A DNA stretch of 63,982 nt, filler included, from Basidioascus undulatus (lineage: Eukaryota): NCBI GenBank assembly GCA_000826855.1. It is 13 parts of 13 records of this genome, joined end to end, with 100 filler letters (N's around TTAATTAATTAA, not from the genome) between each part and the next. Parts side by side here need not be neighbours in the genome. Positions count along the whole stretch, not along the records: positions 33,451 to 57,564 come from JTLS01000248.1; 12 more parts are not named here. One strand, given 5' to 3'. The notes under the pieces were generated by a model. That model was not told where the DNA came from, did no database searches, and worked only from the letters and a program-made list of their open reading frames with translations. Position 1 is the first letter of the stretch; the number at the start of each line of letters is the position of its first letter. The translations under genes and the position numbers were made by a program. Shown here piece after piece: positions 3,258-61,000 of the stretch.

Positions 3258-3357
3258 NNNNNNNNNNNNNNNNNNNNNNNNNNNNNNNNNNNNNNNNNNN
3301 NTTAATTAATTAANNNNNNNNNNNNNNNNNNNNNNNNNNNNNNNNNNNNNNNNNNNN
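3258..3357. other. Artificial contig linker (N44-TTAATTAATTAA-N44). Identical linkers at 6613-6712, 9966-10065, 13316-13415, 16663-16762, 20009-20108, 23349-23448, 26688-26787, 30023-30122, 33351-33450, 57565-57664, 60891-60990
   Basis: Twelve identical 100-nt N-runs with a central six-frame stop oligo; genes are cut at these points. Confidence 0.99.
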
Positions 3358-4095: not shown

Positions 4096-6712
4096 ATGTC
4101 CGTCCACGCTTCCTTTCCCCCCTTTTATTTTTGAGCTTCTAACCCCGCGTCTTCATCTCAAGCAGGTCCCGTCCAGCTCCCCAAGACCGTCTTTCGTCCC
4201 CTCCCCCCAAAACCGCATTGCCCCTCGATCCCGACCGCACGCGCACTATACTTAATCCCCTCCCGCATCTCATCGGATACCCGGAAACTCCCATTCCATC
4301 GTCCCATCGCACACACAGCAGCACACCACACCGCATCTGATTTCTCTGATTTCCCCTCGGACTCTCTTCCCCTTATATCATCTCATCTATCATCGCATTG
4401 TTCGTTTCCTCTCCCTCCCTTCTTCGCTACTTCGTTCGTTGTTTTGTCATCCCCGCTTCCGCTTCCTCTGCTTATCGTTTCCCGTGCGGCGCCCAGCAAC
4501 TCAGCGGCAGTGTGCCGCTGGGGCGCGCTTGAACCTTGGACTGTGTGGACGTTGTTATACAGTTGTCTTTTTGCATGTGCGCGCTGTTGTGTGGGTGTGG
4601 GTTGGCAGAGTGGGGTGGTACGTCGAGGTTGTCGGCACTTAAACTTACCCGACAGACTTACCCGACTAGATGAACTACGACCTTATACACTTTGAGCTGA
4701 CTGGACAGAACGCAGACAGGTGTAGTTCACGACACCCGCATAAACATGAATGTACTGCAGTCACTCTGCAATCGTTCACCATATCACCCACTCTCACCGC
4801 CGCAACAGCAGCCTCGCCTGTGACCGCACTGGTATACAGCGCCCCTTGAGCTTCTTCCATCCTACTGCACATCGCGCGGCCCACCTCAGCGTCAGTGAAC
4901 TTGCTCAGCGCCGCAGGAGAAGCACGCATCCCACTCACCTCGACAGCTGCGCAGAACGCACGACTCCGCATCGCAGCCGTAGCGCAGGGGAAGCAGATCC
5001 TAGAACTCACGCATCGCGCTGCAGTCCTGCCCCTCCCCAGTGACGGCCATTCGTCAAGTCCTGGGCAGGTTGACGCTGAGGATGCTCGGCACCGTCAACA
5101 GGGGAATTTTGGTATCTATAAACGTACAGAAAATAAAGGGTTTGAGGCTTACCACTCAACTTCGCTCGTCCCGGCGATAGGGCAGGCCTGCGCCCCGCTG
5201 GAACACAGCGCCTCGGTGCGAGCGGCCAGAGAACGCTTGGAAAGCGGCGCGACGCACGCGCTGGGGAGTGTGGTTCAGCCTAGAACAAAAGAGATCAGTT
5301 TCCCTGTGGACAAAGCTGGCGATCGAGGTAAAAGGAACGTACCCATCATCGAGCCGTTCACGATGTCAGGCGAGCTGCATGTTCCGCAGCTGCCATTCGG
5401 GTCTGCGGGGGGTGGGCGAAAAGTCTAATATCAGTAACCCCTTCCGACAATGTGTTAAACAGGAACTACACAAAAGGTGTACTGATTCTCCCCCGAGCAG
5501 TTGCTCGCGACCCAATACGCCACCTCCCCGCCCGCGGCCTGGCGCGAGCGCAGCGCGCGTGCCGCAGCCGTGCGGCGGCTGACCATCTCGGCCTGCGCGC
5601 GGCGCTGGCTGAGCGCGGAGCAGTTCCCGCCGTACAGGGCCCAGGCGAGGCACGGCGTGGATGAGCCGACGTAGTTGTTGCAGAAGGACTGGCAGGACGA
5701 GATGGTGGTGGCAGTTGTGGAGGTGGAGAGGTGGTGCGCGGAGATGAAGCAGTCGGAGGGGTATTTGGATACGGTGAGGTCTGAGGGTCAGCTGTGTGGC
5801 CTAGTGATCTGCCGCGGGAATAGGCGCAACACTCACACAAAATCGACTCGCAGGAAGTTTGGCAAGCGGTGTTGTCGGTCGTCGCGTAGGATGCCAGTCT
5901 GTCCCGACATCAGTGTAAGCCCGCTTCGCTCCTCAGGTTCTGTGGCAGATGCAGAGTTAAATACTGCTTACGGGTTAAGATATGGCCAGCCGCTTGGAAC
6001 GCCATAGCCTTGGCCATATTGGTAGTGCTGTGTCGACTACGCAGCGGTAGCGTCGAGGTGGTGTTCGTAACCGCAGCCGTCGCATTGTGATAAAGGCTGT
6101 GGTGATCCGTACGGGAGTCAGGCAAAGTGGACAGACTGTTGTCAATGAGGAATCCATTCAGTGGATGCATAGACAGCGTAAGACCACTGCAGAAGGAGTG
6201 GCCAACCGCTCATGACAGGGCCGAGCATCGTCTGGCACAGCTTGGTACAGCCTCACCGGGATGCTGTACTTGGGGGCGATCTTGAAAGACTTCACTGAAT
6301 GGAGACCACCCCTCCCTGATAGTCAAATTTGCCTTGAAAGCAAACGCCCTGGGAGGCCGCGCGTTACCGAAGAGCGGCGCTGCGGCTGTGGGCTTCGTAG
6401 AGCATGACGACCAGGGCAACTGGCAGACCGTAAACCACAAGGCACACAGTTGTGCTGTAAAATATTTTAAGCCTCGTAATGTAGGGCTCAATCTATCCAT
6501 GATCGCCTGACTTCTGCCAATCGACTTGGACTGTGACTCACACGTTATTGTGATGCGTTAACGAGTAGGCAGGCGTGGAGGTTGTGAAGAAGCCTTGGCA
6601 GTGATGCTGGGTNNNNNNNNNNNNNNNNNNNNNNNNNNNNNNNNNNNNNNNNNNNNTTAATTAATTAANNNNNNNNNNNNNNNNNNNNNNNNNNNNNNNN
6701 NNNNNNNNNNNN

Positions 6713-9965: not shown

Positions 9966-12900
9966 NNNNNNNNNNNNNNNNNNNNNNNNNNNNNNNNNNN
10001 NNNNNNNNNTTAATTAATTAANNNNNNNNNNNNNNNNNNNNNNNNNNNNNNNNNNNNNNNNNNNNTCAGGTCTCCCATGGTGCGCTTCACCACCTACGCC
10101 TCGCCCGCCTCCCCCCGCTCCCGCCAAGGCTCTTGTGCCGCTCCCTCCAGCTCCGGCGGGGATCTCCTCCCGGCTCAGAAGAGTCCCCTTCCGCCACCCG
10201 CGCCGAGTTCGAGCGATGCACACTCCCGTTCACGCGCAGCGTCTCGAGGTTGCGTCTTGGCTTGCGGCGGGAAAACGACATAGACCACGGGGCGCTGTCG
10301 GCAGCGTCGTCTGTGTCGGCAGGCCATGTCGCCCGCGGTCCGGGTGGGGGTGGGAGAACGAGGGTAATGGGATGGGCGTGACGGGTGGAAGATGGAGAAG
10401 GCGCCGGAGAGGGCGGAGCACTCTTAGGAGAAACGGCGCTTCAGGGTGAGGATTTCGAGCTCGAAGGGCGGGAGGATGTGGCGCGTGATGGCGGGTTTGG
10501 GCTGGGAGGGTGAGGATTCGAGGACTTGTGTCTCGTTCATTGTTGCAATGGGTTCTGTGGGCGCGACGAAGCCACTGGAGAGAGCAGCGCTGTGAACGTC
10601 GCTGCTTAGCGGTGCAAGGGGCATGGGCGAGAAGAGTGCCCAGCAAGTGCGTATCTTTAAGGTGCAAACACCATGATAAACCTTCGTGTAACCAGCCGGA
10701 AGATTTGTGGGACTCTAGATACCGCATGTCTACTCTTCCGTTCCGAGTGAGAAGACACGCCGGCTGCGGCTCAAGTCGTTCATTCCGTCTACACGACCGC
10801 GGCCACGCCTTTCGTGAGTCTCACGCAGTCATACTGGAAAGACTTGGACCTCTTTGGGCGCTCGAGAGATTTTATAGGCTTTAATTTGCGTACTGTTAGG
10901 CGACAGCGCAGAAGAGAGCATAGACTGCAGGGTTTCGGGACTCAGTGCTGGGCAGCTGTCAGCAGTTAGAACGGGGGAGGGTGATCGACCAGAGCCAGTG
11001 CCCAGACCATTTCTTATAGAAAATACAGTTTATACAATGTTCTGCAAGTGAGTAGGTTTTCCAATCAGATGTGTTCCATCCTTATGAGTCGCTGCAAATC
11101 ACGCATGGGGAGAACCGAGCAACCTGAGAAAACGACCAACCAGTCTTCTTGAGCTCCATCCAACCACCTTCCTCGACAGTCTGTGAGATGTAACAGTTTT
11201 AATAAGATGAATCTAAGGCCGGCCATTCGCACCTGATGCGCCAGCTGCTGTTGCTTTGTGAGCGCCACTTTCACGCTACCGGACGACCATAAACTCATCC
11301 GCACCGTAAATGCGCCAGCTGTACTCGCTTCCCTCCATTTTTTTTTCTTAATATTAATTGCAAGAGCAAATGCATTATTATTAATTTTTTGTAACGTCCA
11401 AGTAGTTGGGGCATGGGCTGTAACAAACTATAGGAAAAGACCGACCCTCATTGTGTTGTCAATTGCGTCTGCGTCTGTGCGGACAGCCCCGTCTGCACAT
11501 CGCCTTTCATTTCTCAATTCTCTTTTGCTGGCGGCCACGCGGCGGCTCCACGTGCCCCGGTGGCTTCGGCCGGGATGGACCGGGCGGGATTAGCTTGGCC
11601 TCGAGCCGATCGCATCACCGCCCCGGCCCCCGGGCCATCGGCTCCATTCCCTGGCTCGCGCTGGCCATTGGAATGATCGTGCTCGCTGTTGCGGTGCACT
11701 CTATTGCTATTTATAGGCTCCAGGTGTCCATGCACGAGTCTGACTTCTTCACCTTTAGTGAGGATAGACTTTGGGGTGTATTTGAAAGTACTTTTAGTGA
11801 TCCTCTTCCAGATTCTGGCTCTCTGGATCACTGCAGCTGTACATCGGCTGCTGCTGCGCTGCAGTATGGCTGCTCCGGCACTTGTGTTTTGCACCACTAG
11901 CTTGATGAGATGGCCTCAAGACTTGTATATAGCATTGAATTTATGTTCTGATGACCTTGAATGTGGATCACCTTGCCTTCTGCCTAGCACATGGTTCAGT
12001 TGACAAAAACCAGCTTTTGAGCACCTTGACTTTGGTACACCTGCAAGGGGAGACTGTTGTTCTTGATGAGGCTTGTCTGATTGAATCCTACAAGTTGGAT
12101 ATAGGTTAATGGCTAATATTTAAGGTGGAAGTGGATAAAGGAAATGGTGACAGTGTAAGAGCCTGCTGTTGCGTAACCTCTTCACCCTAGCATTCCCAGT
12201 TAACAGTTCATGGCTGCGGATAACAGTCTGACTAAACTACACTCAGAACTCTGATGTTTAGTGTATCCGTACAGCTTGCTGCCTACTCTGTCCGATTTCA
12301 ACGGAGACGGCAATTGGACTGGAACAAAGCCTCATGAGACATTCTGAAAGCAATTCTGACGAGCAGGACCTCTATGTACTTGGAGGGTTACCGAAACGAT
12401 GCATTTAAACATATCTCAAAAGACAGGCAGCATGCACAGCCTGTACATCACTGCACTGCAGGTGCACTGGCTGATGCGAGTTGTTCAGTTTCATGGCCAC
12501 CGACGCATGCACGTTTTCCAGAAGTCCCAGATTGTGCTCTTTGACATGGGAAAGGAATTATAACAGTTAAATAATGAACATATCTTTGTCGCAGCCTCAT
12601 TCCTTCCGTGCAGGACACAAGTATGTGGTGATCCGCTGGTTACTGCCGAGGATGACCGCAGCTGAGAATGGTCTCCTGTGGTAGATCAGCTCCAGTGTGG
12701 TGTAGTCTCAATGTTGAAAGGATTCAAGCTCTCCTCAGTTCTCCATGACTATGATGCTGACAAAAGGCAACATTAAACCATAAGGCCTGCCTGACCGTCA
12801 CGTAAACAGTGCGCAGCGTCGGCCGCCCATCAATCTTGCCAGAGGAGACCTCATTCTGCAAGTCAGTAAGATCGGCTGGGAACTTGAGGATTTTTCACAA

Positions 12901-13469
12901 TGATCCAATCAGGACCAAGCTTGGGGGTATTCTAATCCTCCCCGAGCTGCTAGCATTGCCGCAGGTCCTGGGATCCTGAGCTCAGCCCCAGCCTCATTCC
13001 TCTCAATGCCTGCTGAACAGGGAGCCTGAACCTTCAAGATTCTATGTCCAAGCAAGCATTTCATATTTTATCAGGTTGAATACAAATAGGAGCATAATCA
13101 GAAAGCGGAGGAGGGAGGGGGCAAGGCCGGGGAGGCATTGCAGGAGGGCAGGAGCCAATCGGCGGAAGATCGGAAAAGCGCAAGCTATGTAGAGTGACTA
13201 GGTGTACGAGGAATATGGCGATAGGGGAAGTGAGAGTAACATTTCAGAAGAGAGGGAAGGAGGGAAGGAGGGAAGGGGGGAAGGGGGGATGTGAGTGAAG
13301 TGGGTGGGCCTCACGNNNNNNNNNNNNNNNNNNNNNNNNNNNNNNNNNNNNNNNNNNNNTTAATTAATTAANNNNNNNNNNNNNNNNNNNNNNNNNNNNN
13401 NNNNNNNNNNNNNNNGATGAGGGACAGGGGAAGAAGGGAGGGGGGTTCTTATACTGTGGAGAGACAAAG

Positions 13470-16662: not shown

Positions 16663-16762
16663 NNNNNNNNNNNNNNNNNNNNNNNNNNNNNNNNNNNNNN
16701 NNNNNNTTAATTAATTAANNNNNNNNNNNNNNNNNNNNNNNNNNNNNNNNNNNNNNNNNNNN

Positions 16763-20008: not shown

Positions 20009-20108
20009 NNNNNNNNNNNNNNNNNNNNNNNNNNNNNNNNNNNNNNNNNNNNTTAATTAATTAANNNNNNNNNNNNNNNNNNNNNNNNNNNNNNNNNNNN
20101 NNNNNNNN

Positions 20109-23348: not shown

Positions 23349-23448
23349 NNNNNNNNNNNNNNNNNNNNNNNNNNNNNNNNNNNNNNNNNNNNTTAATTAA
23401 TTAANNNNNNNNNNNNNNNNNNNNNNNNNNNNNNNNNNNNNNNNNNNN

Positions 23449-26687: not shown

Positions 26688-26805
26688 NNNNNNNNNNNNN
26701 NNNNNNNNNNNNNNNNNNNNNNNNNNNNNNNTTAATTAATTAANNNNNNNNNNNNNNNNNNNNNNNNNNNNNNNNNNNNNNNNNNNNCGCCGGGCCGGCT
26801 TGCAG

Positions 26806-30022: not shown

Positions 30023-30122
30023 NNNNNNNNNNNNNNNNNNNNNNNNNNNNNNNNNNNNNNNNNNNNTTAATTAATTAANNNNNNNNNNNNNNNNNNNNNN
30101 NNNNNNNNNNNNNNNNNNNNNN

Positions 30123-33350: not shown

Positions 33351-33450
33351 NNNNNNNNNNNNNNNNNNNNNNNNNNNNNNNNNNNNNNNNNNNNTTAATT
33401 AATTAANNNNNNNNNNNNNNNNNNNNNNNNNNNNNNNNNNNNNNNNNNNN

Positions 33451-33567: not shown

Positions 33568-34179
33568 CCTACATGTCAAGTCCGTCCTGGAGCAGGACAG
33601 GCGGATAGTGAGGGAGCTCTGTGAACTACGGCCACCCGGCAGTCCTCACCTGACCAGGATAGCTAGTATTATAGACTTGGAATATGCCTCCTATGTGTCT
33701 CTGGAGCTGGCTAGGTATGTACACAAGGCCTGCAACCAGCACTGGCTCTGGAAGACTCTCCACGACGGCCTGGGGGTGGATGCCACCCAGACACAGACGG
33801 CGGTGGTACCCCGACTCTACCACTTTCATTCTCCCCTCATTTCCTTCTTCCCCCTTGTTTCTTCCTCCGAAGCATGAGCGATCACGGTCTTTGCCGAGCC
33901 GGCCACTGGGCGGGCAAGGAGATGAGCACATGCACTACTAGGGGCTTGCCGTTCGAGAGCATATGCGCGTAGTGGCCCGTCTCCGCTTCCTTTCCTCTCC
34001 CGAGACCATGCATGGCGGTGCGTCTCCGCTTCCTTTCCTACTCCGAGACCATGATCTTTCATCACCTTGCGTTGGGTACCCGCTGAGCCGGCTTCAGCAG
34101 AAAAGGTAGCGATTACTTCATCCTCCGCTCTGAGGACAAGGCGGGCAATCGGATCCAGATGATGCGCTTCTGCTTCTCT

Positions 34180-34186
34180 TATTTAA
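34180..34186 (+). promoter_or_regulatory. Putative TATA box of the micro-exon gene
   Basis: TATTTAA lies ~65 nt upstream of ATG 34251, which is in a CAAAATG context. Confidence 0.45.
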
Positions 34187-34250
34187 GAAGCACCGCAGTT
34201 TTGCCAGCCTCTTTTCAGCACACTCTCGAAATCATTGCCGAGCTCCCAAA

Positions 34251-36322
34251 ATGCGTTCCTCCACTCAGACCCTCTTCGTCCTCGTAGCCATTGCTGTGTC
34301 TGCCTCAGTCGAGGTCCTCGCCCTTCCGCAGGTGAGTGTTGCCCTGCCGAATCCTGAGTTACAACGAGGCACTGACGCTGGTGGTGGTATCCTGACCGTC
34401 TCAGACCGTACGTGTTTCCCTGCTGAGTCCTGAGCTTACAACGAGGCACTGACGCGGGCCATCGTCTCCCTGTCGTCTCAGGCCGTACGTGTTTCCCTCC
34501 TGAGTCCTGAGCTGCAACGAGGCACTGACGCAGGCCGTCGTCAACCCATCGTCTCAGAGCGTACGTGTTTCCCTCCTGAGTCCTGAGCTGCAACGAGGCA
34601 CTGACGCGGGCCATCGTCTCCCTATCGTCTCAGGGAGTACGTGTTTCCCAGCTGAGTCTTGGGCTTACAACGAGGCACTGACGCGGCCATCGTCTCCCCA
34701 TCGTCTCAGGCCGTACGTGTTTCCCTCCTCAGTCCTGAGCTTACAACGAGGCACTGACGCGGGCCATCGTAACCCCATCGCCTCAGAGCGTTAGTGTTTC
34801 CCTGTTGAGTCCTGAGCTTACAACGAGGCACTGACGCGGGCCATCTCTCCCTATCGTCTCAGGGAGTACGTGTTTCCCCGCTGAGTCCTAAGCTTACAAC
34901 GAGGCACTGACGCAGGCCATCGTCAACCCATCGTCTCAGAGCGTACGTGTTTCCCTCCTGAGTCCTGAGCTGCAACGAGGCACTGACGCTGGCCATCATC
35001 TCCCTATCGTCTCAGGCCGTACGTGGTTTCCCTGCTGAGTCTTGAGCTTACAACGAAGCAATGACGCGGGTCGTGGTATACCGACCGTCTCAGTTCGTAA
35101 GTGTTTCCCTCCTGGGTCCTGAGCTTACAACGAGGCACTGACGCGGGCCCTCGTCTCCCCATCGTCTCAGTGTGTACGTGTTTCCATGCTGAGTCCCGAG
35201 CTTATAACGAGGCACTGACGCGGGCCATCGTCTCCCCATCGTCTCAGCGCGTATGTGTTTCCCTCCTGAGTCCTGAGCTGCAACGAGGCACTGACGCGGG
35301 CCATCGTCTTCCCACCGTCTCAGGACGTACGTGTTTCCCTCCCGGGTCCTGAGCTTACAACAAGGCACTGACGCTGGTCGTGTTATCCTGACCTTCTAAG
35401 ATCGTACGTGTTTCCCTGCTGAGTCCTGAGCTGCAACGAGGCACTGACGCTGGTCGTGGTATCCTGACCGTCTCAGTTCGTACGTGTGTTTCCCTGCTGA
35501 GTCCTGAGCTGCAACGAGGCACTGACGCGGGCCATCGTCTCCCTATCTCTCAGGGAGTACGTGCTTCCCTGATGAGTCCTGAGCTGCAACGAGGCACTGA
35601 CGCGGGCCATCGTCTTCCCATCGTCTCAGAACGTACGTGTTGCCCTGATGAGTCCTGAGATTGAGGCACTGACGCGGGCCATCGTCTCCCCATCGTCTCA
35701 GACCGTACGTGTTTTCCTGATGAGTCCTGAGCTTACAACGAGGCACTGACGCGGGCCATCGTCTCCCCGTCGTCTCAGGCCGTACGTGTTTCCCTCCTGA
35801 GTCCTGAGCTGCAACGAGGCACTGACGCGGGCCATCGTCTCCCCGTCGCCCCAGAGCGTATGTGTTTCCCTGCTGAGTCCTGATCTTCAACGAGGTACTG
35901 ACGCGGGCCATCGTCTCCCTATCGTCTCAGGGAGTACGTGTTTCCCTCCTGAGTCCTGAGCTTACAACGAGGCACTGATGCCGGCCATCGTCTCCCCATC
36001 GTCTCAGGACGTGCGTGTTTCCCTGCTGAGTCCTGAGCTTACAACGAGGCACTGACGCGGGCGATCGTCTCCCTATCGTCTCAGACCGTACGTGTTTCCC
36101 TCCTGAGTCCTGAGCTACAACGAGGCACTGACGCGGGCCCTCGTCTCCCCATCGTCTCAGTGTGTACGTGTTTCCCTCCTCAGTCCTGAGCTTACAACGA
36201 GGCACTGACGCAGGCCATCGTCAACCCATCGTCTCAGAGCGTACGTGTTTCCCTTCTGAGTCCTGAGCGGCAACGACGCACTGACGTTGGTCGTGGTATC
36301 CTGATTGTCTCAGGCTTCCTAA
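34251..36322 (+). CDS. Micro-exon gene: small secreted peptide of 54 aa from 27 exons, 25 of them single codons
   Basis: Exon 1 is 34251-34331 (27 codons, signal peptide, ends phase 0 at CAG|GTGAGT). 3-nt exons: 34405 ACC, 34482 GCC, 34558 AGC, 34634 GGA, 34710 GCC, 34787 AGC, 34863 GGA, 34940 AGC, 35016 GCC, 35094 TTC, 35171 TGT, 35248 CGC, 35324 GAC, 35401 ATC, 35477 TTC, 35554 GGA, 35630 AAC, 35702 ACC, 35779 GCC, 35855 AGC, 35931 GGA, 36008 GAC, 36085 ACC, 36161 TGT, 36238 AGC. The last exon is 36314-36322 GCT TCC TAA. Confidence 0.85.
34332..36313 (+). repeat. Tandem array of 26 intron units (69-75-nt intron + 3-nt exon, ~77-bp period)
   Basis: Consensus GTACGTGTTTCCCT(G/C)CTGAGTCCTGAGCT(TA/G)CAACGAGGCACTGACGCGGGCCATCGTCTCCCCATCGTCTCAG+NNN. 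Confidence 0.97.
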
Positions 36323-37768
36323 CTACCGAGCGCTCAAGCGGCCAACGTCTCCTGTTCTGTCAGGGGCAGGGGGTGAAATAAGAGGGAAGTGGGAGAAGAA
36401 GGGGGGTTAATTCCGCTTCCCATGTCGATTGGGGTCTTGAATGCAACATTTGTTATCAAGAATGCCTCGACCAGCGCCAACCAGGTGCAGCACCAGCTCA
36501 TCCTATTTTCTCGATTTCGTGCCGCCAATCTGCAAAAAAGGTCCAATGCTAGAGGTCTGGGGCAGCGTCTCGATCCAAGCGGGCGGCCAAAGAGACGCCC
36601 ACGGAGCTTAGCTAGGACCTCGGGAGCAAGGGTCTTGTCCTTGGCTATTGCAAGCGGGTCGTAGCCATGACGGACGAGAAAGCCGAGCTTGCCCATCTGG
36701 TCCTTGATGGCAAGCAACTCGTGAACGCACCCACATGAGTAACTGAAGATCTTGGAAAGCGAAAAACGTGCCGCAGCAAGACTCGTCTTGAGCTGGGTGA
36801 GCGGAAGGCGGGTACGCGGCGGAGGTGGCCTCTCGCGTTGTTGTTTGGCGTTTGAGCGCTCGTCGTACCTGGCTCTCGTCTCTGCGTCTCTCCTCCCTCA
36901 CATCACCACCTTAAGTGTCCTCCTCCCGCTTCTGTCGGCTACCCTGTCAGTGTGTGCAGCCTCCCAGTGGGCAAGAGCAAGTGGCATGAAAAAGGAACGA
37001 AGGGCGGCGGATAATAAACTACTATATTGCGCAACAGGGATACGAGGGAGGACAGCGTGTATGATCCTACATCATTGCGAGCGAAGTAACAGTAAAATGG
37101 GTTAGAGCAGCAAAATACGGAAAGAAGAGGCACGAAAGGCGAAAAAGCGGGGCAAAAGATGGGCGGTGGCGGATACGTGTGTGTGCCTATGCAAAATGCT
37201 AAGAGTGAGCCCAAAGGAAAAGGAAACAGTGAAGAAAACGATACCCCAAGAATAGGAAAGAAAAATGGATGGGAAACCGTCGAAAACCGTGAGACAGCTA
37301 AAAGCGGAGGCTGTGATGTGCGTGCGAGAACTGAACTGGACGGCAAAAAAAGATGAGGGGCAAACGCCAAAAGACGAGGAGAAAGGCAAGCAAGAGGAGG
37401 CGAAGAGGAGAGGAACAATTAGAGATAAAGGTCAACGCTTCGTGTGTGGGTGAGAACGTCGATGAGAGCGCACATTGTGTCAAGTGTCGCCCCTTCCGCC
37501 GGACCCACACCGCCTGCGTCAACACAGCCATCGCCACCACGCTCCCCGACACCCCCATCACCCTCGGCAATGACCACACCATCCCCGGCATCACCCTCAT
37601 CGACCGCCTCCTCAACGCTGCCCCCCACGTCGCCAGTCCCGTCCTCCGCACCATCAAGTCCACCCTCTGTCAAGCATCTGAACACCGTGTCATCCATGTC
37701 ATCCCTACATAGTCTATTCTTCTCCTGCTGGTGCAAAGCCTTCGCTCACGTGGTTTCGGTGCTGGCCT

Positions 37769-38944: not shown

Positions 38945-41042
38945 ATGCGCAGCTTTCAAAACCTGCGCGGGCTTGCCTTAACATGGGCGATCTCAATCTC
39001 TTCTGGATTCTCCTTCCTCCTGTTCGGATGTGAGTGCGGCGCTCCTCCAGTTCGAGCAAAGATGGGAGGGAAGGCGGCTGATACGTTCCTTGGTCTCTGC
39101 GCGCTCAGACGACAATGGTGTCATGTTCGTTCTTCTGCCTGCTTCTCCTAATAACCGAGACTATCCTGACAGTCATTCTTCGCATCGTCCGGCTTTCACA
39201 GGGCCGGCTTAATCACGACCAAGCCATTCCTGACTGCCATGAACAATCCCGGTGCCGGAACTGTTGGAACGATAGTGGCCATTTATAACCTGGTGGGTGA
39301 AGGATCGGTCTTGCGACGATAGCGGGATCGGCAGGAAATTGACGAGCGAATCAAATTGCCTCGGGCTGTGTACAGGGATGCTTCTTCGGATGCGTGGTGA
39401 GTAGCATAATCGGGTTCAAAATCGGGCGCCGCAGGACGATCATGCTGGGCTGCTGGGTCAACGTCGTCGGTGGGTAGACCCCATTTTGAGCTAGTGGGCA
39501 GGTGGCTGAAGTCGACATCGGATATCGACGGGCTCCGCCGAACTCAACAGGCACCCTAATCCAAGCCCTCGCCTTTGGCGTCCCTCAACTCATTGTTGGC
39601 CGCATCGTTACGGGTATCGCGACCGGATTGATCACGTCTTCGATTCCGATCTGGATATCTGAGACCTCGCCCGCTTCCGAGCGGGGCGGCCTCGTAGCGG
39701 GACAATTGGCCATCGTCAGTCTAGGCATCACTATAGCCGACGGCATTGATTTTGGCATGAATTATATCGTAGGAAGCCAGGCAGCTTGGCGTGAGCTTCG
39801 CCTTTTTCCTCGTCGCTCGCGTCTCCGACATAAGCTGAAGCGTATGCACCGGTCACCCTGACACCTCACGCAGGCTTTCCCATCGCCTTCCAGTGTACCT
39901 TTGCACTTCTCACGCTTTCGACCGTACATTTCCTTCCCGAGTCGCCTCGATGGCTCTACGCTGTCGGTCGAACCGACGAAGCCGACGAAGTTCTCACGCG
40001 TCTCAAGGACCTTCCCTTCGACAACGTGGACGTAAAAGCTGAACGCACGGAAATTCTTAGCGCCATCGAGTACGAAAAGACGGTGCCGAAGATGGGAATT
40101 CGAAACATTCTCCGCGGCAAGGGCGAGCTCAAGATCATGCGCCGCATCATGACAGGTTTTGCCTGCCAGTGGTGGCAGCAATTCACTGGTATTGGTGTCG
40201 TGATTGGCTATCTGCCGTTGGTAATCACGAACCTCTTGGGCTTGTCGGAAACGCTCGCCCTAGGCCTGGGCCTGGTTTCGGCGGTCGTCTACACCATCGC
40301 GTCCATCCCTCCAATCTTCTTTGTCGACCGTATTGGGCGGAGGAAGGGCTTGATGTTGGGCAGCACTGCGATGGCCGTCTGTTGGGTCGCCTTTGTCGCC
40401 CTAATCACGCAAACTCAGAGCAAGGCTTGCTTATACGCTGCTGTGGTGATGATCTACTTGTTTCAGATGTGTGTCTGCACCGTCTTTCCCTTCTATTTCG
40501 AGCGAGCAAAGCAAGGCTTACCCCTCAATTCTTTCTTGTCAGCGCCTTCGCCTTTTCGTGGCTCTCAATCCCTTGGATTTACCCTTCCGAAATCACGCCC
40601 CTTGCCGTTCGCCACGTCGGAGCGGCGGTCGGCACTTCCGCTGAGTGGCTGTCGGCCTTCCTTATCGCCGAGGTCACCCCGCTGGCTTTGAAGAACGTGG
40701 GCTGGAAGTTTTTCTTGGTGTTCGCTGTCATGTGGTGCGTGTTCGGGGGAGACCCTACCTCGACGTCGATCGTGGATTCTTTGTCTGGTCGTATCTCGAT
40801 TTGACACCAGCTGATCGCTTCCATTCCTCCTCATGTGCAGCGTCGCAGGCATTCCGTTGGTCTACTTTTTCTTCCCTGAGACGGCCGGCCTCTCTCTCGA
40901 GGCGATCGATCTCATGTACGCTTCCGGTCGGCTCACAGGCGGCATCGAGGAGCAGCGAGAGCAGGCTGGTCGCAGGCACGAGATGTTGGAGAAGCAGGCG
41001 AAAGCGGCAGTGCATGTAGAGTACGCAAGACGGCGAGACTAG
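38945..41042 (+). CDS. MFS sugar-porter family transporter (Stl1-like)
   Basis: LTWAISISSGFSFLLFGY/DNGVM; KIGRRRTIMLG; QLIVGRIVTGIATGLITSSIPIWISETSPASERG; PESPRWL; QQFTGI; VDRIGRRK; WIYPSEITPLAVRHVGAA; VYFFFPETAGLSLEAID. Confidence 0.93.
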
Positions 41043-44166: not shown

Positions 44167-45693
44167 ATGGTTTACCCTGACACCTTCAAAGGCTTCGCCT
44201 CGCACTCCCAGGAGCGGTGGTCGGATTTCAAGCTCCTCGAGTACAAGCCGCGTCCTTTCACGGAGTTCGACGTCGACGTCAAGATCTCTCACTGCGGAGT
44301 GTGCGGGTCTGACATCCACACATTGAAGAACCAAGGTGTAAGTTGCTTCTCCGTGGCTCCGTGATGTTCTCGCGCTTCCTGGGGTGCATGTCCTTCCAAG
44401 ATCGTTGCTAACTTCCCGCACGTTACCCTGCCGGCACACTCTCCCCAAGACCTGGATTGGCACGAAGTATCCCATCGTTGTTGGACACGAGATCGTGGGC
44501 AAAGCGGTCAAGGTTGGCTCCAAGGTAACCGACATTGCCATTGGGGACAGGGTCGGTGTCGGCGCCCAGATCGGCTCTTGCGGTGACTGCAAATTCTGCA
44601 AGAACGGGAATGAGAGTGAGCCCCACATGGCGCTACGCTTGCTCTTCCCCTTGCTTTTCCGCTTGAACCCACCCCGCTAATGCTCCCGCGGTTTCGAAAA
44701 GACTACTGCAATGTCAGGATGATTGACACGTACGGAACCACTTTCGAGGACGGCACCGTCCAGCAGGGCGGCTACGCCAATTACATTCGTGCGCACACCC
44801 AGTTCGCCTTCAAAATTCCTGTGCGCCCCTTTTTTGTCGGTAACGGTTTCGAACCTTTTGACAGTTCGCGCTCACTTTCATGTCGTCTTTTCCTCTGTCC
44901 ACAGGATGATATCCCCTCCGATATCGTGGCACCCATGCTCTGCGGAGGCCTTACTTGCTTCTCTCCGCTAATCCGCAATGGTGCTGGCCCCGGAAAAAAG
45001 GTCGGCATCGTCGGCATCGGTGGCTTGGGACACTTCGGTGTCTTGTTCGCCGCTGCACTCGGCGCGGAAGTGTACGCCATCTCGCATTCGACTAACAAGA
45101 AGGAGGACGCGATGAAGGTGGTCTTTGTCTCCCATATTGACGATGGCGAACGTATCGAATCTAACTTGTCACTCGCTCTTGTGCAGATGGGCGCCCACCA
45201 CTTCACTGTCACCTCTGAAAGGGGATGGGCCGAGCCCCTTCGTCATGAGCTCGACCTGATCATCTCCACCACGAATGGCAGCAAAGACTACCCTCTCCAA
45301 GAGTACCTTTCGCTTCTCAGCGTTCACGGCAAGTTCATCAGCGTGGGCCTGCCCGAGGCTCCTTTCCCGCAAATCCGCTGCCAGGACTTCATGTCTCAGG
45401 GAGCGCTCATGGGCGCGTCTCACATCGGCAATAAGGCGGAGGCTTTGCAGATGCTCGACCTGGCTGCCAAGCAGAACATCAAAAGCTGGATTCAGCCCGT
45501 CAAGCTGTCCCAGGCGGGCTGCAAAGAGGTTCGTGGGCACGTCCCTCTTGCTTCTGCATCTCTTTCTTCTCTTGCTCACTGACTAGGGATTTCCGACCCT
45601 CTTGACTACCAGGTCGTGGAGTCGGTCTTGGACGGCAAGGCCAGGTACCGATACGTGCTCACCGACTTTGACGACGAGAAGTTTGCGAACTAG
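44167..45693 (+). CDS. NADP-dependent zinc alcohol dehydrogenase (CAD/Adh6-7 type)
   Basis: CGVCGSDIH; GHEIVGK; GDRVGVGAQIGSCGDCKFC; APMLCGGLTCFSPL; GIVGIGGLGH; ends GKARYRYVLTDFDDEKFAN* (TAG 45691-45693). Confidence 0.95.
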
Positions 45694-47525: not shown

Positions 47526-50347
47526 CTACCCCTGCTCGCTCGTCCAACCCCAATCGTCCAACAACCCCTTTACGATCGCATGCACTGGCCAAGCCGTCTC
47601 CCCCTCAATCTCTCGCAAAATCTGGATGAGCATCTGCCTCTCTCGGGAAGAGCGCAGGCATTTTCCGGCTGTCGAGCGATTTCCGGCGCAGGAGAAGGCA
47701 GTACATCAATGCGATTTGCACATGAAGACGCCCGACACGAAATGAGGGGGACGACGAGGGGACACGTACCCAGTGCTAACTGTTGCGTCGCGCTGATTCT
47801 CGCGCTCTGACATCGATTCGTGACCGAAATTCCGCAAATTAGTCTGGCGTGTTTGAGGATCTCCTCCTCCAGGCGCTGAAAGAAGCGGAGGCCTGTAAAG
47901 CCGAGCGAAAGGCCGGAGGAAGGGAGGGGGGCAAGGCAGTGCGTGTAGAGTAGAAACCGTGCCATGTGGTATGACTGCATTCCCGCCACTGGTAAATGGC
48001 CGACTCGTCAGACATAGATGGTTGTGACGCAAAACGTAGAAAGAGGGAGATCGAGTGCAACTTTCTGCTCACCGTGCCAATCCGAAAGGAGCCCTACGGG
48101 ATGAAGAGAGCGGCACCAGTTAGATAGACCTCACAGGCGGTGCAGGCGAGACAGGACACTCACAGACTGATGGGAAAGGGTTGGTCTCTCCTTCGTCTGC
48201 TTCCGCATACCAAAACGGCTGAAACCCGGGTGGCAAGCTTTCCTTCCAGCCCTCGACCGCGCCCTCGAGGTCTTTCCACTCCTCCCGTCTCTTGTCGTCG
48301 TTCGTCGTATTCGGCCGACTGAAGCAAAAGTTGATCACCTTGGCCAGCAAGTAGTATATTCGGTTCGCCCACATCTCATCCGACGTGGGCGAATGCAGAT
48401 CGACCGAAGTGAGGAAGCATGAAGACAGATCGATGATCGTCGGCCGGCGGTGTTTCTCCGCCTGCAACAGAAGCATGATCTTTGGCACTAAACGAGAGTA
48501 TCGAAGCGGAAGACGGGACTCACCCAAAGGATGTCCTGACGCAGGAGAACCCAAAAGGCCGCCTTGCGCAGCTCATCCGACTCTTCGCAGATGCTTTCGA
48601 CGCCAATCAGCGAGCATGAGCCGAGGAGGTGATGTTGCAAGTCGGCACCGGACGCTGCCAAATTGTCCATGTGAGTACTCAGTGACAGTCGTGCCCGAAG
48701 AAACGGAATATGCGAACAAGGAACGAGAAAGCCTTACGTTCCAACATCTCGTACATCCTCAGAATCGTCATGGCCGCCAGCAACTCGCCACTTGACGCGC
48801 CACGCCGATCCTGCAGCATAGGAATCATATCCCTCACGCATTCCGAGTGGTAGTATTCGGCAATGAGGCCGTCCATGCACTCGAGACGGGAGAGATGTCG
48901 AGCGCTAAAGGCCAGGATGGCGTTGAGAAGAACAGGATACGAGAAAGCTCTCTCCGGAATGAGCGTCCCAAAGTGTCGGCGAGAGTCTGTCATGTCGAGC
49001 TGAGAGCCGAGGAGAAAGGTCATGAGAATATGGAGAACACATTCGAAAGCGGTTTGGTGACTCACCCATGGTCCCACTACTTCGACGTAATGTCTCATCA
49101 ATCTCATCATCAGTCGATCCCCCCGTGGAATCCTCCTGGTCACCCTTCCCTCCCTCTCTGATGTCCCCAGGTCCAAGGCTCCGTCGCGCTCGCCGTCTCC
49201 CCGTGGTAATGCGATCTCGAGCGCCTCGTTGTAACCCCTTTCAATCTCGTTCTGGTGGCTCACGACCTGGTCGAGCAGCGAAGAGAGGTCTAGCGCGGGT
49301 TGTTCCGGCGACGAAAGGATGGGATCAAACAGGCTGTAGATCTGGACCGAGAAGGGTAGGTTTGGCGGTGAAAGGGTCGTATCTGTAGTCGTGAGCGGCT
49401 CGGAAGGGCGATGCGGGCGATCTGAGCCGTCCTGAAAGTCGCGAGTAAGAAAGGTGGACAAATCCAAGCTGGATGGCAAGCCTTGGCCGTTCGCCGACGG
49501 AGAGAGAAGTGGCGGATGATTAGGGGGAAGAACGAGAGGCGAAGACGTGTTGTGTGAGACCGGAGCGGTGGTGTCTCCTTCACGAGCCGAACAGGTTGTG
49601 TCGGAGACGACGTGCAGGGTTTGCACCGCCATCGCCCCATCCATCGAGGCATCCGTTGTCCAGCGAGAGGCGTCTGCGTTAAGGCTCGGAGTTGCGAGGG
49701 TTTCTCTTCCTCTTGGGACGTTCGACGACAATACAGATGACGGAGAAGGCCTTGAGGGACCATTGACCCGGGAGGTAATGTATCCCGACGCTACCTTGGA
49801 GGTTTCGTCGACGAATTTGAAACCGACTGCTATCGCTCGAGTAGCAGCGTGAGCTCGAGCCTACGCTCTCATATGTTGTAGAGAAGGGAGCACGCACGCG
49901 GAGATATATTTGTTCGTTTCCCGGACCCTCCCACCGAGCCACCATGCAGAACGTTGTTCTTTCGTGGACGGCCGTTCCCAGAATGTGAGTCCGTGTCCAC
50001 GCATTTTCGCCTTGATTTCCGACATCGTTCGCATATTGGCTTAGTCTCGTCGCCTGTCGGCGGTTCACAAGCGCAGGCGGGTCATCGAAGCTATCAGCTC
50101 AAAGCGCAATGGTCAGGAAACGAGAATGACAACAAAACTTCACATTTCAGATGCCTCTGTCGGCACGTAAGACTGTATGAGGATGAACGCGCGTGAGTTT
50201 TCCAATCGAAATCAAGCGCGCACGAGGGACGACTTACCACCCTGTTCGGTCCCTCCGCAGGGCCTTGCCTTGTCCTGTTGCCGTCTTGGGTGGGCTCGGG
50301 CGAGCGGCGCCGTCCATGATGAGAGTCGAGTCTGGCGAATCCACCAT
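47526..50347 (-). CDS. Zn(II)2Cys6 transcription factor with fungal-specific TF domain
   Basis: The spliced DNA-binding cluster reads RDRTG/CLTCRQRHLK/CDETKPICERCRKSRRKC. The middle region has LMRHYVEVVGPW/LDMTDSRRHFGTLIPERA..LLNAILAFSARHL and LRKAAFWVLLRQDI; it ends ..LLDDWGWTSEQG*. Confidence 0.9.
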
Positions 50348-50874: not shown

Positions 50875-51882
50875 CTAGTAGCCCCCTTCTTCAAGGGCGA
50901 GCTCTGCGAGCCCGGATGTAGGAGGTAGTTCGGGAGGGCCGATTGGGATGCGATTGGTGGAATTCGAGTACCAGGGAGTCGTCATCATCGAAGTCATCGG
51001 CAGAAACCCAGCTGCGTTCCTCGGGGCCATAGCCAGCCCAATCGACCAGGTACTGTAACTTCCGGCGGAAAAGGCGGGAGTCGAGGATGCGGGATACTTC
51101 ATACTCCTCCTCTCCTTCGGCATTGATGATAGGTGGAGGCGGTATGGAAGCAGAGCGGGAGGGGAGGCGGAGCGGGGGGGATGGACTGCGTGTGGAGCGA
51201 GGGGAAGTGAGATGGATAAGGTGAGGACAGGTGGAGAAGGGCAGAAGGGGGAGGACGCACCGGATTGGTATGAGAAAGATTGGGGGTCGGAAGGGTCTTC
51301 GCGTAGCTCCGCGAGCAGCTCGTGTGAGATGGGACGGTCGGGGTACTTCTTGAGGACCTGCTCCCAACCATCGCATACAGCGCATCCCAATTCAGCTCCA
51401 GATTATTTCGAAGTATGAGGAAAACAAGGGAGCGAGAAGGGGAGGAAGACGCACCCGCTTCAGATTATCGCAGTACCGCCACTTCGCCTCAGCAGGCGTC
51501 AAGTCCCTCTGCTTTGCCCAGGCATCCCACTTTGCGCGGCCGAGCATATCAAACATCCCCGGCCTCGAGCCGCGCACGTTGCCCTCCGTCGCTGCATCAC
51601 CACATCCGCCACCCTACTATCAGCCCTCCTGCTCAGGGGGGAGGAAGACGCCGGGGGAAAGAGGCGCACCCTGCTTGTACAGGCTGTACATCGCCAGCTT
51701 CTCCTCGTAGCTCGTTTGGATTGGGCCCGTCTTGGGTAGTCTGGCACCATCCCACCCCCACCCGATGAGTTCCCAACTCTCGATGCATGGAGGGGTCAGG
51801 AGACGCACGACTGCACGATCCTGACAGCGCGATCGAAGCGCGCGTCGACGCCGTGCGCGCTCGCGTGCGCGCTGGTCGACAT
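50875..51882 (-). CDS. Acyl-CoA-binding domain protein; last exon runs into the gypsy remnant
   Basis: [103 protein letters not shown].. The predicted last exon ends at TAG 50875-50877. Confidence 0.8.
50878..51140 (-). mobile_element. Ty3/gypsy (chromovirus) pol 3' remnant: chromodomain + polypurine tract
   Basis: [59 protein letters not shown], immediately followed by GAAGAAGGGGGCTAC (PPT-like). No integrase or LTR is visible. Confidence 0.85.
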
Positions 51883-57194: not shown

Positions 57195-57664
57195 GGTGTG
57201 ATAAGGAAATCGCATAGGGCGGCTTGGGGAGCGCGATGAGGTGAATAATGGGGACACGAACAAGACGAACCCAGTGAAGCAGGCTTTTATGTAGATAGAA
57301 AAAGAAAACACTGCATTTCAAGGTGCACACATGGCTGCAGAGCAATGCAGAGCGGAGTCTGTTGCGCAGGCAGGCCCGCCGGCACCGCGGCAGCCTCCCC
57401 GACAGCCCCCTCCCTTCTTTGACCTCGGACCGGCATCTCAAGTGCCTTGCTTTCCCTTAAGCCATTTTTCCCTCAATCCACCCCGGCAGCTTTCTTTTCT
57501 CTTCAAGGTGCGCTTTATCCAGCTCTGTCTCCCCCTTCTTCTTCTTCTTCTCTCATCCATCCCANNNNNNNNNNNNNNNNNNNNNNNNNNNNNNNNNNNN
57601 NNNNNNNNTTAATTAATTAANNNNNNNNNNNNNNNNNNNNNNNNNNNNNNNNNNNNNNNNNNNN

Positions 57665-58048: not shown

Positions 58049-61000
58049 GGCTGGCTGGCGGTGTGGGGGGTGTGGGACGGGAGGGCGCGTGTGCGCTACG
58101 GATCAGACCAGGCCGACTTTCTCCTGGAAGCGCTCTGAGAATTAAGACGCTGGGGGGACTAGGAGGAGGAGGAGCGGAAGACGATGGCGGTGGGATGGGA
58201 TGGAGGAAGCCAGAGCTGGAGCGAGCGGGCGCGCGCGCATGCCAGAGTGCGCGACGTGGCCCCGCCCATTCGACGAAATCGCCAAACAGTCGCATTTCTC
58301 GTTTCTCCTTCTCCCTTCACAACACTTCGCATTACTGACCCATCGCCCCTTCGCATTCCAAGCCATATATCGGACTCTTTCGGAAAGATCAATTTCAATT
58401 TAATATTTCTTCTCGAGGCCACCCTGGTACACCCTCACCCTGGCACGGCACTGCACCTGTACTGCTTCGCAGACCACAATACCTCCTCCTTCGAGCCTGG
58501 ATAGAGAGACGCCGCGCTGCAGTTTCTCTGTTATGTGGATTTGTTCTAGTTTTCAGGCGCTCGTCAAGGCTGAGGAAAAAATGTCGCCGCAAATGCGGGG
58601 CGGTAGGGGAGATCCGTCGGGCGGTGGCTGCGGGGGTCGTTCGTGTGTGGTTTCCTTTATCATCTTCATGCCCAATGTATCATAACGACCAATCCCCCAT
58701 ACCTTCTACATTCCGGTGGCACCTGACTGGGCATTCCCAGCCTGCAAATGAGCGCCGTACTTCCGGAAAGTGTGCAAACGCTGAGCTGCCTTGTCAAAGT
58801 GCAGCTCTACAGAGAGCCAACAACCCCGGCCAAGCGGTCAAGCAGCGGCGCATTCCCAAGACCGCAAGTTGTGGTCTGCTGAGGACGCTTCCGGAGGCGT
58901 TCGCATTCTCTGCAGGGCTGCCGTGGTACCAAGCAGGAACACGCTGATGCAGGGGCCGTTTCTCAACTCAGCACGCCCGCCGCCGCAGTGCTGAATTGAG
59001 GATATCTCTCCTCCTCCTCATGTACAACCTTAGATCCGTGTTCCTGAAATTAAATCCGAATTCACGAGGTAGATTAACCAAAGATACTCCGCTAACGGCG
59101 AGATCGCCGGCCGAAACCGGAAATGACTGTCGAGCAGCAGCCACGCAGAGAGCAGCCCTCGCACGCACACAGGTACTGTATGAATGGCCAGGCCGCTCAG
59201 AGATATTTTAAAATATGAAGTACTAGAAAAATAACACAATACAAGAAAGATGTAAAATACTAAAAGACCACTTAACTCAAGTCATTTTCGGGGCGCACAG
59301 GGTGCGCAGCCGCGGTAGTCGCTGGCGGGGCACGTTTTTTTCGTTCCGAACAGCGGTCCCCGGGAGTACAACAGGAATCCTTCGAAGCAAAGAGCTGCAT
59401 TGCCCTCCTTCTTTTGGAAAGCAATCACATGTCATGCGGTGTTGTCCGCGACGCTGTCCCAAACGTACAAGCAGCCACACGCATGCCCTTCGAGCGACTT
59501 GCAGGACCGTCTTCTTTGCTCTTCGAGCTCTTCGGCTTTTATCAAGAGATAAAAAGTATGGGCAGGAAGTATGGGCGATGGCGAACAGTGGTGTGAATTG
59601 TGGGCGTGTGGGAGTGTCCCGGCGAGGGGGAGGGGGACGAGGAACAGATGGGCGTTGGGGTTCGGAGGACCGTCTCAGAAAAGGGTGGAAGTGTCTGGGC
59701 TGCTTTGGAAACTTGCAATAACTTGACTGTCGGTAGTATTGGTAGTATGGAAGACCGCGTATTCCTCAGGAAATGCAAGGGGCTGTCGCGGTCTGCGTGG
59801 GGAGATACGTGCGTTCCTCCATTCGTCTTCTTCCTTTTGATGTAGGCCGACATGGAGGACGCGATAAACATGGGTGTTCTCCCGCACCAAACTACCTCTT
59901 CCCAAGCCTCCCCCTCCTCCTGCCACGGCGGGGGCGAGGAAAGGGGTGAAGCCCCCACCCCGCAGGGCTCGCTTGATGAACCAAAAGTTCCGAGTAATTC
60001 TGACAGCTGTAGCGCCCCAAGGAGACCAGACACCGCAACTTCCTTGTGGACAAACAGGTTGCGCTGCCGCTGCCTCGGGAATCGAAAAGGACTTACACAA
60101 TCGTGAACAAAACTCTCAAAGAGGAACCTCATAAAATCAAGCTGTCTTCTGTACAGTTTAGGACAACGCCGACTTTTGTCTCATTCTCTCCCATGCAACA
60201 CAGAGCGTGCGAGTTAAACTTGCATAAGCAGCTCGTAGCGGAAGCTCTGGAGTTTCCTCCGACTCATCAACGTTTCCGGGGTAGAAAGAACAATATCACT
60301 GGGATTGTTGCACAGGAATTTATTCTGATCTGGGTTGAAGTGTGAGCAGCATTTCGAAGATAATTCAGCTGCCGGGCTTCCTGGGACGTGGCGCACGCTG
60401 CACACTGGCGAAGTTGCTTTTCATAAACACGTAAAGCCGACTTTGTTTCCGAGGAACATGATAGGTGGGCCGCAAGTTACGTCATAAAGCGTGGCAAATG
60501 AGGTATTCTCCTTGACGGCATCTTTTTTGAGAAGTGCAGGTGGGAAAGGCTGTACTCTTGGGTTGCTTCGCGAAGTATTCCAGTGTCAGGAAAACTGCCA
60601 GGCATAAGTACCTATGATCTGGTTCAGAGGATCCCAAGAAAACAAACGGCACACCGACGTGATATACCAAAGTTTTTGCGTCTCTTTGCGCCCACCACGC
60701 TAGACGTATGTTCTCCTTCCGATTCGCATGCCTCCGTGGAAGCTTCTATGAAAAAGGTATACATGGCTACATATTCGGAGACCGGCAGGGGATTCCTTCA
60801 AGATGGCGAAATGTCAGCCCGAGCGCTTTTGGGAACGTTAAGAATTGTCGAGGAGCATCGACGCAAAGACCCCCCCCCCCCCCCCCCCCCNNNNNNNNNN
60901 NNNNNNNNNNNNNNNNNNNNNNNNNNNNNNNNNNTTAATTAATTAANNNNNNNNNNNNNNNNNNNNNNNNNNNNNNNNNNNNNNNNNNNNCTAGCAGTTC

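Follow-up and report, generated by a model that had tools for sequence, protein, structure and literature searches.

The window analysed here is a stretch of 63,982 nucleotides, filler included, from the genome of Basidioascus undulatus (GCA_000826855.1), and at 34251..36322 on the plus strand it holds an array of near-identical intron-like units separated by single triplets. We conclude that this locus is probably a genuine micro-exon gene, apparently built by tandem duplication of a unit consisting of an intron and a codon, whose product would be a secreted peptide of about 54 residues before signal cleavage. The array has conserved splice signals and near-random triplets without stops, it follows a candidate signal-peptide exon with a phase-0 end, and unrelated intron families in metagenome contigs show the same architecture. 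This combination is difficult to account for if the triplets do not serve as codons once the introns are removed.

Anatomy of the locus

The locus was parsed by an explicit script and by direct reading of the sequence, with Tandem Repeats Finder run alongside. The latter reports a repeat at 34336-36286 (period 77 bp, 25.6 copies, 85% matches). No open frame runs through the array on either strand. The parse resolves the repeat into the following features of the predicted gene.

34180..34187, plus strand: TATA-like box TATTTAAG, 64 nt 5' of the ATG, found by direct sequence reading
34251..34331, plus strand: coding exon 1, 81 nt, ATG and 26 further codons, ending in phase 0 at the first donor
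34332..36313, plus strand: array of 26 intron-like units (69-75 nt) and 25 micro-exons of exactly 3 nt each
Intron starts, units 1-9, plus strand: 34332, 34408, 34485, 34561, 34637, 34713, 34790, 34866, 34943
Intron starts, units 10-18, plus strand: 35019, 35097, 35174, 35251, 35327, 35404, 35480, 35557, 35633
Intron starts, units 19-26, plus strand: 35705, 35782, 35858, 35934, 36011, 36088, 36164, 36241
34405..36240, plus strand: full span of the 25 single-codon exons, from the script parse
Micro-exons 1-9, plus strand: 34405-07, 34482-84, 34558-60, 34634-36, 34710-12, 34787-89, 34863-65, 34940-42, 35016-18
Micro-exons 10-17, plus strand: 35094-96, 35171-73, 35248-50, 35324-26, 35401-03, 35477-79, 35554-56, 35630-32
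Micro-exons 18-25, plus strand: 35702-04, 35779-81, 35855-57, 35931-33, 36008-10, 36085-87, 36161-63, 36238-40
36314..36322, plus strand: terminal coding exon GCT TCC TAA, with the 3' untranslated region downstream

The predicted spliced coding sequence totals 165 nt in 27 coding exons, and the 25 micro-exon triplets comprise 10 distinct codons and no stop. An earlier, sequence-only reading of this stretch had described each unit of about 77 bp as an intron followed by exactly 3 variable bases, with a phase-0 donor after exon 1, a terminal GCT TCC TAA, a coding sequence of 165 nt, introns of 69-75 nt and no stop among the triplets. The script parse agrees throughout (26 GT...AG units, with all 25 spacers 3 nt long), and the 25-residue translation of the joined triplets is identical to the peptide string proposed at that time.

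The ATG of exon 1 lies in the context CAAAATG. The 27 encoded residues include a basic residue in the n-region and small residues after a hydrophobic run, and the best 9-residue Kyte-Doolittle mean is 3.46. We scored signal peptides with a home-made rule (hydrophobicity, charge and small residues) rather than SignalP. Exon 1 passes this rule, which is passed by 2 of the 892 ATG-initiated open reading frames (ORFs) of at least 27 codons in the window. The TATA-like box at 34180..34187 may act as a promoter element. In a different frame, about 42 codons that start with ATGATG (34159-34287) overlap both this box and the beginning of exon 1; they could count as an upstream ORF only with a transcription start further upstream than is assumed here.

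Splice signals of the repeat units

Each of the 26 units has GT...AG boundaries. GTACGT is the donor of 20 units, and GTGAGT, GTTAGT, GTAAGT, GTATGT (twice) and GTGCGT are those of the other six; the first donor, after exon 1, is GTGAGT. At 28-29 nt from the 3' end, CACTGAC is found exactly in 23 of the 26 units and CTGAC or CTGAT (CTRAY-type) in 25, with ATGAC in unit 10. The acceptor is CAG in 25 units and AAG, a weak acceptor, in unit 14. The sequence-only reading had given GTACGT, CACTGAC and CAG as the signals of the unit, and these are present in 20, 23 and 25 units, respectively. Two units depart from the pattern at the branch site or acceptor: in unit 10 (35019-35093) CACTGAC is replaced by CAATGAC and the donor is followed by an additional G, and unit 14 (35327-35403) has an AAG instead of a YAG end. 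If any units are skipped or spliced poorly, these two are the likeliest, and skipping them keeps the frame.

The pattern exceeds chance. A 17-nt core of the unit has 25 matches in the 64-kb window, all of them within the array, where 0.03 would be expected by chance, and the three-donor structural pattern used in the scan described below has nine matches versus none in 100 shuffles.

We compared the units with introns native to the same contig, which were mapped by aligning homologous proteins to it (n=6, four in a transporter gene and two in a cytochrome P450 gene). An ab initio search that joined long open frames was discarded in favour of this protein-to-DNA alignment, as it was too noisy in GC-rich DNA. 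The six native introns are about 83-106 nt long, with GTRNGY-type donors (GTGGGT, GTGAGC, GTGTGT, GTGCGT, GTGAAC and GTGAGT), CTRAY-like branch sites and YAG acceptors. As judged from sequence, the repeat unit fits this local intron grammar; it is somewhat shorter and, if anything, closer to the textbook consensus.

The array has no match in Rfam: a search of 33800-36800 at E up to 1 gave just one weak hit, which lies outside the array and is irrelevant. No unusual fold was found on either strand: four units folded as RNA gave z = -0.32, +0.81, -0.03 and +0.26 relative to shuffles, within a range of -0.6 to +0.8. A small nucleolar RNA (snoRNA) host, a mirtron and a hairpin of the introner-like element kind were rejected on these results.

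Sequence variation within the array

The 26 units were aligned and their columns divided into 11 signal columns (G1, T2, G5, T6, CTGAC and AG) and 62 other intron columns. Non-consensus bases occupy 2 of 286 cells in the signal columns versus 149 of 1612 (9.2%) in the others, and when columns were permuted, 11 random intron columns were as low in only 8 of 100,000 trials (P = 8e-5). Of the 76 windows of three columns in the unit, the one made up of the exon columns varies most, with a summed entropy of 4.51 (2.67 for the next non-overlapping window). Mean pairwise identity within the array is 86-87% for introns and 41% for triplets. The closest pair of introns, units 4 and 9, are 97% identical, and their exon bases differ at two of three positions.

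Relationships among the introns indicate how the array grew. The nearest-relative intron shares the downstream triplet in 10 of 26 cases (permutation P = 1.5e-4) and the upstream triplet in 5 of 26 (P = 0.09). Thus, the array grew by duplication of an intron together with the codon that follows it, partly in blocks.

That the introns are far more alike than the triplets could have several causes. Diversifying selection on the codons is one possible answer; another is that the introns evolve in concert and selection keeps the codons different; strong constraint on the whole intron is possible as well. Insertion of intron copies into an older ORF would also produce this contrast, but would produce neither the strict 3-nt period nor the shared downstream codons.

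The same architecture in metagenome contigs

Metagenome contigs were scanned for three GTACGT donors, each after CAG and 3 nt, with 45-75 nt between them. The identical pattern was applied as a control to prokaryotic genomes (110 loci) and viral contigs (12 loci). At least 122 metagenome stretches matched and 121 loci were analysed; all metagenome counts given here are among the matches listed. To pass as an array, a chain had to include four or more distinct triplets and to have no frame that stays open across 90% or more of its length.

At least 60 metagenome chains have five or more units. At least 34 of them pass the filter, yielding at least 32 non-redundant arrays in at least 26 loci. 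None of the 23 chains in the prokaryote control passes, and none of the 13 chains in the 12 viral loci is of the array kind. The prokaryotic chains (loci L122-L231) are coding tandem repeats with an open frame, invariant "triplets" and no branch motif. Many of the control matches are streptococcal and enterococcal coding repeats, where splice-like motifs arise at fixed spacing.

Based on end consensus and blastn, the metagenome arrays fall into about ten intron families. Example arrays contain 21, 32 and 26 cloned introns with typical fungal signals, and the flank of one locus (L064) encodes a HET domain, which points to a fungus. A blastn comparison of the window array with all 231 loci of the metagenome set and the prokaryote control found no similarity. 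Thus, the metagenome arrays are analogous to the window array and not homologous.

The 371 triplets in the 32 arrays include no stop, although 9.6 are expected from position-specific base composition (P = 5.8e-5). When distinct codons are counted once per array (245 in total), there are again no stops versus 6.4 expected (P = 1.6e-3). Two parsers were used to measure the spacers. The first, which placed intron ends by similarity alone, finds 263 of 265 short spacers to be 3 nt, the other two being 6 and 9 nt. The second, which scored exon lengths of 0-30, finds 391 of 409 to be 3 nt and four to be 6 or 9 nt; most of the other 14 values (2, 7, 10 and 19-30 nt) come from chain ends or from spacers that the first parser measures as 3 nt. 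Parsing that presupposes no spacer length also yields 374 exons of 3 nt without a stop. In all 24 arrays analysed (23 from the metagenomes and that of the window) the identity of the introns (69-91%) exceeds that of the triplets (25-51%). Adjacent identical triplets were considered as a possible sign that single units had been duplicated recently; they number 40 of 351 versus 34 expected, no clear excess, and this mark was set aside.

Collinear alignments were made between pairs of related loci. Five of these pairs are diverged, and in four of them identity is 80-88% for introns and 30-41% for triplets. The fifth, L069 and L075, has 84% versus 81%, and in no other diverged pair does conservation of the triplets match that of the introns; two further pairs are near-identical and therefore carry no information on this point. 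The first coding exon of both L069 and L075 may end right after the ATG. Their arrays are located as follows.

L069:1903-5719, plus strand: longest array listed, 54 consecutive 3-nt exons, rich in Thr, Lys and Ile codons
L075:1153-2482, plus strand: array of the diverged partner of L069

One locus, L046, is a complete analogue when read as the reverse complement. The gene begins with an ATG exon of 19 codons (924-980) that has a hydrophobic core. Next come an intron and a 15-nt exon, then a run of nine 3-nt exons, and the terminal exon, of 15 codons, closes with a stop. Loci L044, L076 and L102 have homologous signal first exons, each with a TATA box 5' of it, and in L044 and L076 the box (TATATAAG/CATATAAG) lies at a distance from the ATG like that in the window gene. 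A single intron family is common to L034, L044, L046, L074, L076, L081, L083, L102 and L118. Where the 5' end is present, members of this family have a homologous signal first exon, and the parts encoded by micro-exons differ. The nine loci look like paralogous secreted peptides with a conserved leader and a hypervariable body.

Predicted expression and origin of the gene

Transcription, splicing order, translation, secretion and a role in generating diversity are all predictions for this locus, and would proceed as follows. We predict a gene of a GC-rich filamentous fungus with a message assembled from 27 coding exons, 25 of which would be single codons. Transcription would begin 3' of the TATA-like box. 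The 26 short introns (69-75 nt), with full spliceosomal signals, would be recognised by intron definition and removed singly, in turn, with removal from 5' to 3' during transcription as the simplest order. A donor 3 nt from an acceptor and the acceptor itself cannot be bound simultaneously by standard early splicing complexes. As each donor here lies 3 nt from the preceding acceptor, the introns would have to leave one after another.

The 165-nt ORF would be translated into a pre-peptide of 54 residues, and cleavage of a signal peptide of about 20 residues would release the mature, secreted form. This would have about 33-35 residues, with Ser, Gly, Ala and Thr abundant and two cysteines 13 residues apart. 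The array would have originated by repeated tandem duplication of an intron and the codon following it. The codons would later have diverged, or been kept different by selection on the peptide, and the introns would have stayed alike and retained their signals. With all internal exons 3 nt long and in phase 0, any donor joins any later acceptor in frame. Exon skipping and unequal recombination between the cloned introns could then vary the peptide codon by codon.

Assessment of the predicted gene

Every indirect test made here favours the gene proposed in the sequence-only reading, including those on the signal columns, the variable triplets, the exon 1 rule, the intron grammar and the recurrence of the architecture; excision of the units is the predicted step. 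Several points weigh against this interpretation. Splicing and translation are deduced from sequence tests and not from RNA. The adjacent acceptors and donors imply that splicing must be ordered. Given the AAG end of unit 14 and the altered branch motif of unit 10, not every unit need splice as drawn, and in a draft contig the number and order of the units may be imperfect.

Two of the original arguments for the gene were based on true observations that lend weak support when taken alone. Within the window, 25 random triplets would avoid stops with P ~0.3, and the lack of indels in the spacers is not significant in one array, as only 3 of 77 columns are at stake. Among the analogues, the 3-nt spacing is imposed by the scan pattern at two junctions and is largely inherited within an array; the pattern fixed the spacers at 3 nt, so arrays with spacers of 1, 2, 4 or 5 nt fall outside its scope. 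Of the 11 analogue loci that extend 120 nt or more upstream, the rule detects a signal exon in only 4, each of them a member of the same intron family. None is found by rule in the remaining seven, with a hydrophobic start (M-K-L...) seen by eye in L073.

Protein searches were also blank. A word search of a collection of 5.8 billion proteins with exon 1 and its read-through as the query, and not the spliced product, returned no candidate of 33-105 residues, and a word search of predicted proteins with the first exon of L102 returned none. Such blanks are expected if gene callers miss genes of this kind; no transcript-derived ORF was found either.

Alternative explanations

It is unlikely that the locus is transcribed with its micro-exons mostly skipped, or with the array removed stepwise as one large intron, so that it acts as a splicing delay, a regulatory device or a non-coding RNA and the peptide of the triplets is irrelevant. 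The donors and acceptors are near-equivalent, so long-range pairing is possible, and a join of exon 1 to the last exon keeps the frame. The placement of a donor beside an acceptor resembles the ratchet points of recursive splicing, an established process in which adjoining introns are removed in order via a juxtaposed acceptor and donor. Unlike the micro-exons proposed here, ratchet points have zero-length exons that add nothing to the message. Against this alternative, joining exon 1 straight to the last exon would yield a signal peptide and two residues only. The lack of stops in the triplets of the 32 arrays listed argues for reading by the ribosome, as does the near-random identity of the triplets compared to the conserved introns.

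We consider it improbable that the repeat is a decaying or never-functional minisatellite, in which an intron and 3 nt were amplified by slippage or unequal exchange and are not spliced, the intron-like appearance being derived from the founder copy. Tandem duplication would copy splice signals like everything else. The locus lies near a contig end amid other small repeats, which would suit this explanation, as would the blank protein word search with exon 1 and read-through and the weakness, within the window, of the arguments from stops and indels. Neutral decay, however, predicts neither the conservation of the signal columns, in which departures from consensus are about 13-fold rarer than in the other intron columns, nor the concentration of variation in the triplets, which are the most variable window. 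Nor does it predict recurrence in about ten unrelated families with no stop in 371 triplets and with signal exons in one family. These results count against a minisatellite.

Repeated insertion of mobile intron copies (introners or introner-like elements) into an older, continuous ORF is very improbable. The introns are alike and the triplets have near-random identity, as though the coding sequence predated the introns; adjacent identical triplets show no clear excess, and one metagenome intron family occurs in at least nine loci. Near-identical intron families within a genome are also a feature of introner-like elements, and one analogue family here spans several genes. Introner-like elements are described as present in hundreds of unrelated genes, longer than regular introns and with stable predicted structures (PMC3609843). 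In contrast, the units here are in tandem, are shorter (69-75 nt) than the local introns (about 83-106 nt), have no stable predicted fold and travel with a codon. By length and by structure, the locus is not an introner-like element. Insertion gives no cause for a strict 3-nt period across up to 54 exons, and related introns in the window share the downstream codon as block duplication predicts. Loci with a common intron family have homologous first exons, hence are paralogous genes, and no copy of the unit is found outside the array in the 64-kb window.

That the locus is a host gene for one small RNA per intron (snoRNA or mirtron), like the tandem snoRNA-bearing introns of mammalian SNHG14, is scarcely credible: snoRNA host genes are known that have tandem arrays of similar introns and exons of no importance (PMC11608373), but the array has no Rfam match, its units fold no more stably than shuffles, 69-75 nt is too short for a snoRNA between donor and branch site, and the stop-free triplets would be left unexplained.

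Comparison with known systems

Gain of an intron by tandem genomic duplication is a known process. Duplication across AGGT gives a segment with ends like splice sites, and thus a new intron that is immediately spliceable. Known cases make one intron and not 25 serially, which sets them apart from the favoured origin of the array as a micro-exon gene.

The closest parallel is with the micro-exon genes (MEGs) of schistosomes and other flatworms. MEGs have a signal-peptide exon followed by very small symmetrical exons with lengths in multiples of 3 (PMC4350168), and exon sizes are given as 3-81 bp (PMC10526429). Their introns reach 5 kb, skipping of exons yields protein variants, and the family is described as restricted to platyhelminths (PMC4350168), its members being classed by protein similarity. 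The window gene shares the tiny symmetrical exons and a frame that is safe under any skipping, and its first exon is a candidate signal exon. MEGs encode small secreted proteins that evolve fast; the product predicted here is likewise small, variable and secreted, with 25 of 27 coding exons only 3 nt long and encoding 25 of about 33-35 predicted mature residues. However, MEG introns are long and not clones of one another, and the exons vary in size, whereas here the introns are tandem copies of 69-75 nt, every internal exon is one codon, the host is a fungus and there is no sequence similarity. Thus, our analysis suggests that the locus works like a flatworm MEG but is not a member of that group, based on host, intron type and sequence. 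The comparison with schistosomes made in the sequence-only reading is apt as an analogy and not as membership, given the fungal host and the short cloned introns.

In fungi, a long-read annotation of Coprinopsis cinerea reports 27 exons of 3 nt in 26 genes (bioRxiv 10.1101/2024.05.10.593147). Fungal spliceosomes are thus able to include an isolated 3-nt exon that lies between two short introns. The Coprinopsis exons occur essentially one per gene, in ordinary genes and between introns that are unrelated, whereas there are 25 in a row here.

Searches of full-text literature found no description of serial single-codon exons between tandem intron copies. The systems retrieved were isolated 3-nt exons, schistosome MEGs, introners and tandem snoRNA-bearing introns, in agreement with the sequence-only reading, which did not recognise a gene of this kind as described.

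Genomic context

The window consists of draft contigs joined by 12 linkers of the form N44-TTAATTAATTAA-N44 (six-frame-stop). Most pieces are about 3.25 kb and the one at 33451-57564 (24.1 kb) is the sole long one; adjacency across linkers is meaningless.

Linkers 1-6: 3258-3357, 6613-6712, 9966-10065, 13316-13415, 16663-16762, 20009-20108
Linkers 7-12: 23349-23448, 26688-26787, 30023-30122, 33351-33450, 57565-57664, 60891-60990
33351..33450, no strand: artificial contig joint N44-TTAATTAATTAA-N44; the contig of the gene is 33451-57564

The predicted peptide gene lies about 800 bp from the start of the 24.1-kb contig. A 45-bp unit is repeated twice at the very start of this contig (33454-33540, Tandem Repeats Finder), and a duplicated motif of about 40 bp ending ...CCGAGACCATG lies just 5' of the gene (33975-34055).

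The contig encodes a sugar transporter (39376-41039, plus strand), a cytochrome P450 (41659-43314, minus strand), a zinc-type alcohol dehydrogenase (44342-45579, plus strand) and a protein with a fungal-specific transcription-factor domain (48682-49860, minus strand), along with a chromo-domain ORF and an F-box-like ORF. The first four adjoin one another downstream of the peptide gene, in a layout that resembles a small metabolic cluster; no tie was established between the peptide gene and the transporter, P450, alcohol dehydrogenase and Zn-cluster-type factor. The chromo-domain ORF (50894-51391, minus strand, Pfam E = 2e-10) could be what is left of a chromovirus-type retroelement, or could encode a chromatin protein. 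Fungal_trans_2 and MDM10 domains identify the window as fungal, and the best named relatives of the P450 are from Aspergillus and Exophiala (50-56% identity), which points to a filamentous fungus absent from the protein collection.

Implications

We propose, tentatively and at less than even confidence, that several fungal lineages carry an unannotated class of genes with one codon per exon in arrays of cloned introns, encoding secreted peptides and acting as a generator of diversity at the level of single codons. If this is true, unequal recombination between identical introns would add, delete and shuffle codons, and frame-neutral skipping would allow one gene to produce a family of peptides. 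With up to 54 consecutive 3-nt exons (L069), such genes would also place the most extreme natural demand known on ordered splicing.

If the window gene is spliced as drawn, tens of consecutive single-codon exons would set a new lower limit of gene fragmentation, and dozens of working introns in one gene would have been created by tandem duplication. The arrays would offer a natural setting in which to study intron definition and obligatory ordered splicing. They would also represent a class of small secreted peptide genes that is invisible to ORF finders and standard gene predictors, and a convergent counterpart of the flatworm MEGs, which are described as confined to platyhelminths (PMC4350168). 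The peptides would be candidate effectors, pheromone-like or antimicrobial peptides, with variable parts that behave as hypervariable regions.

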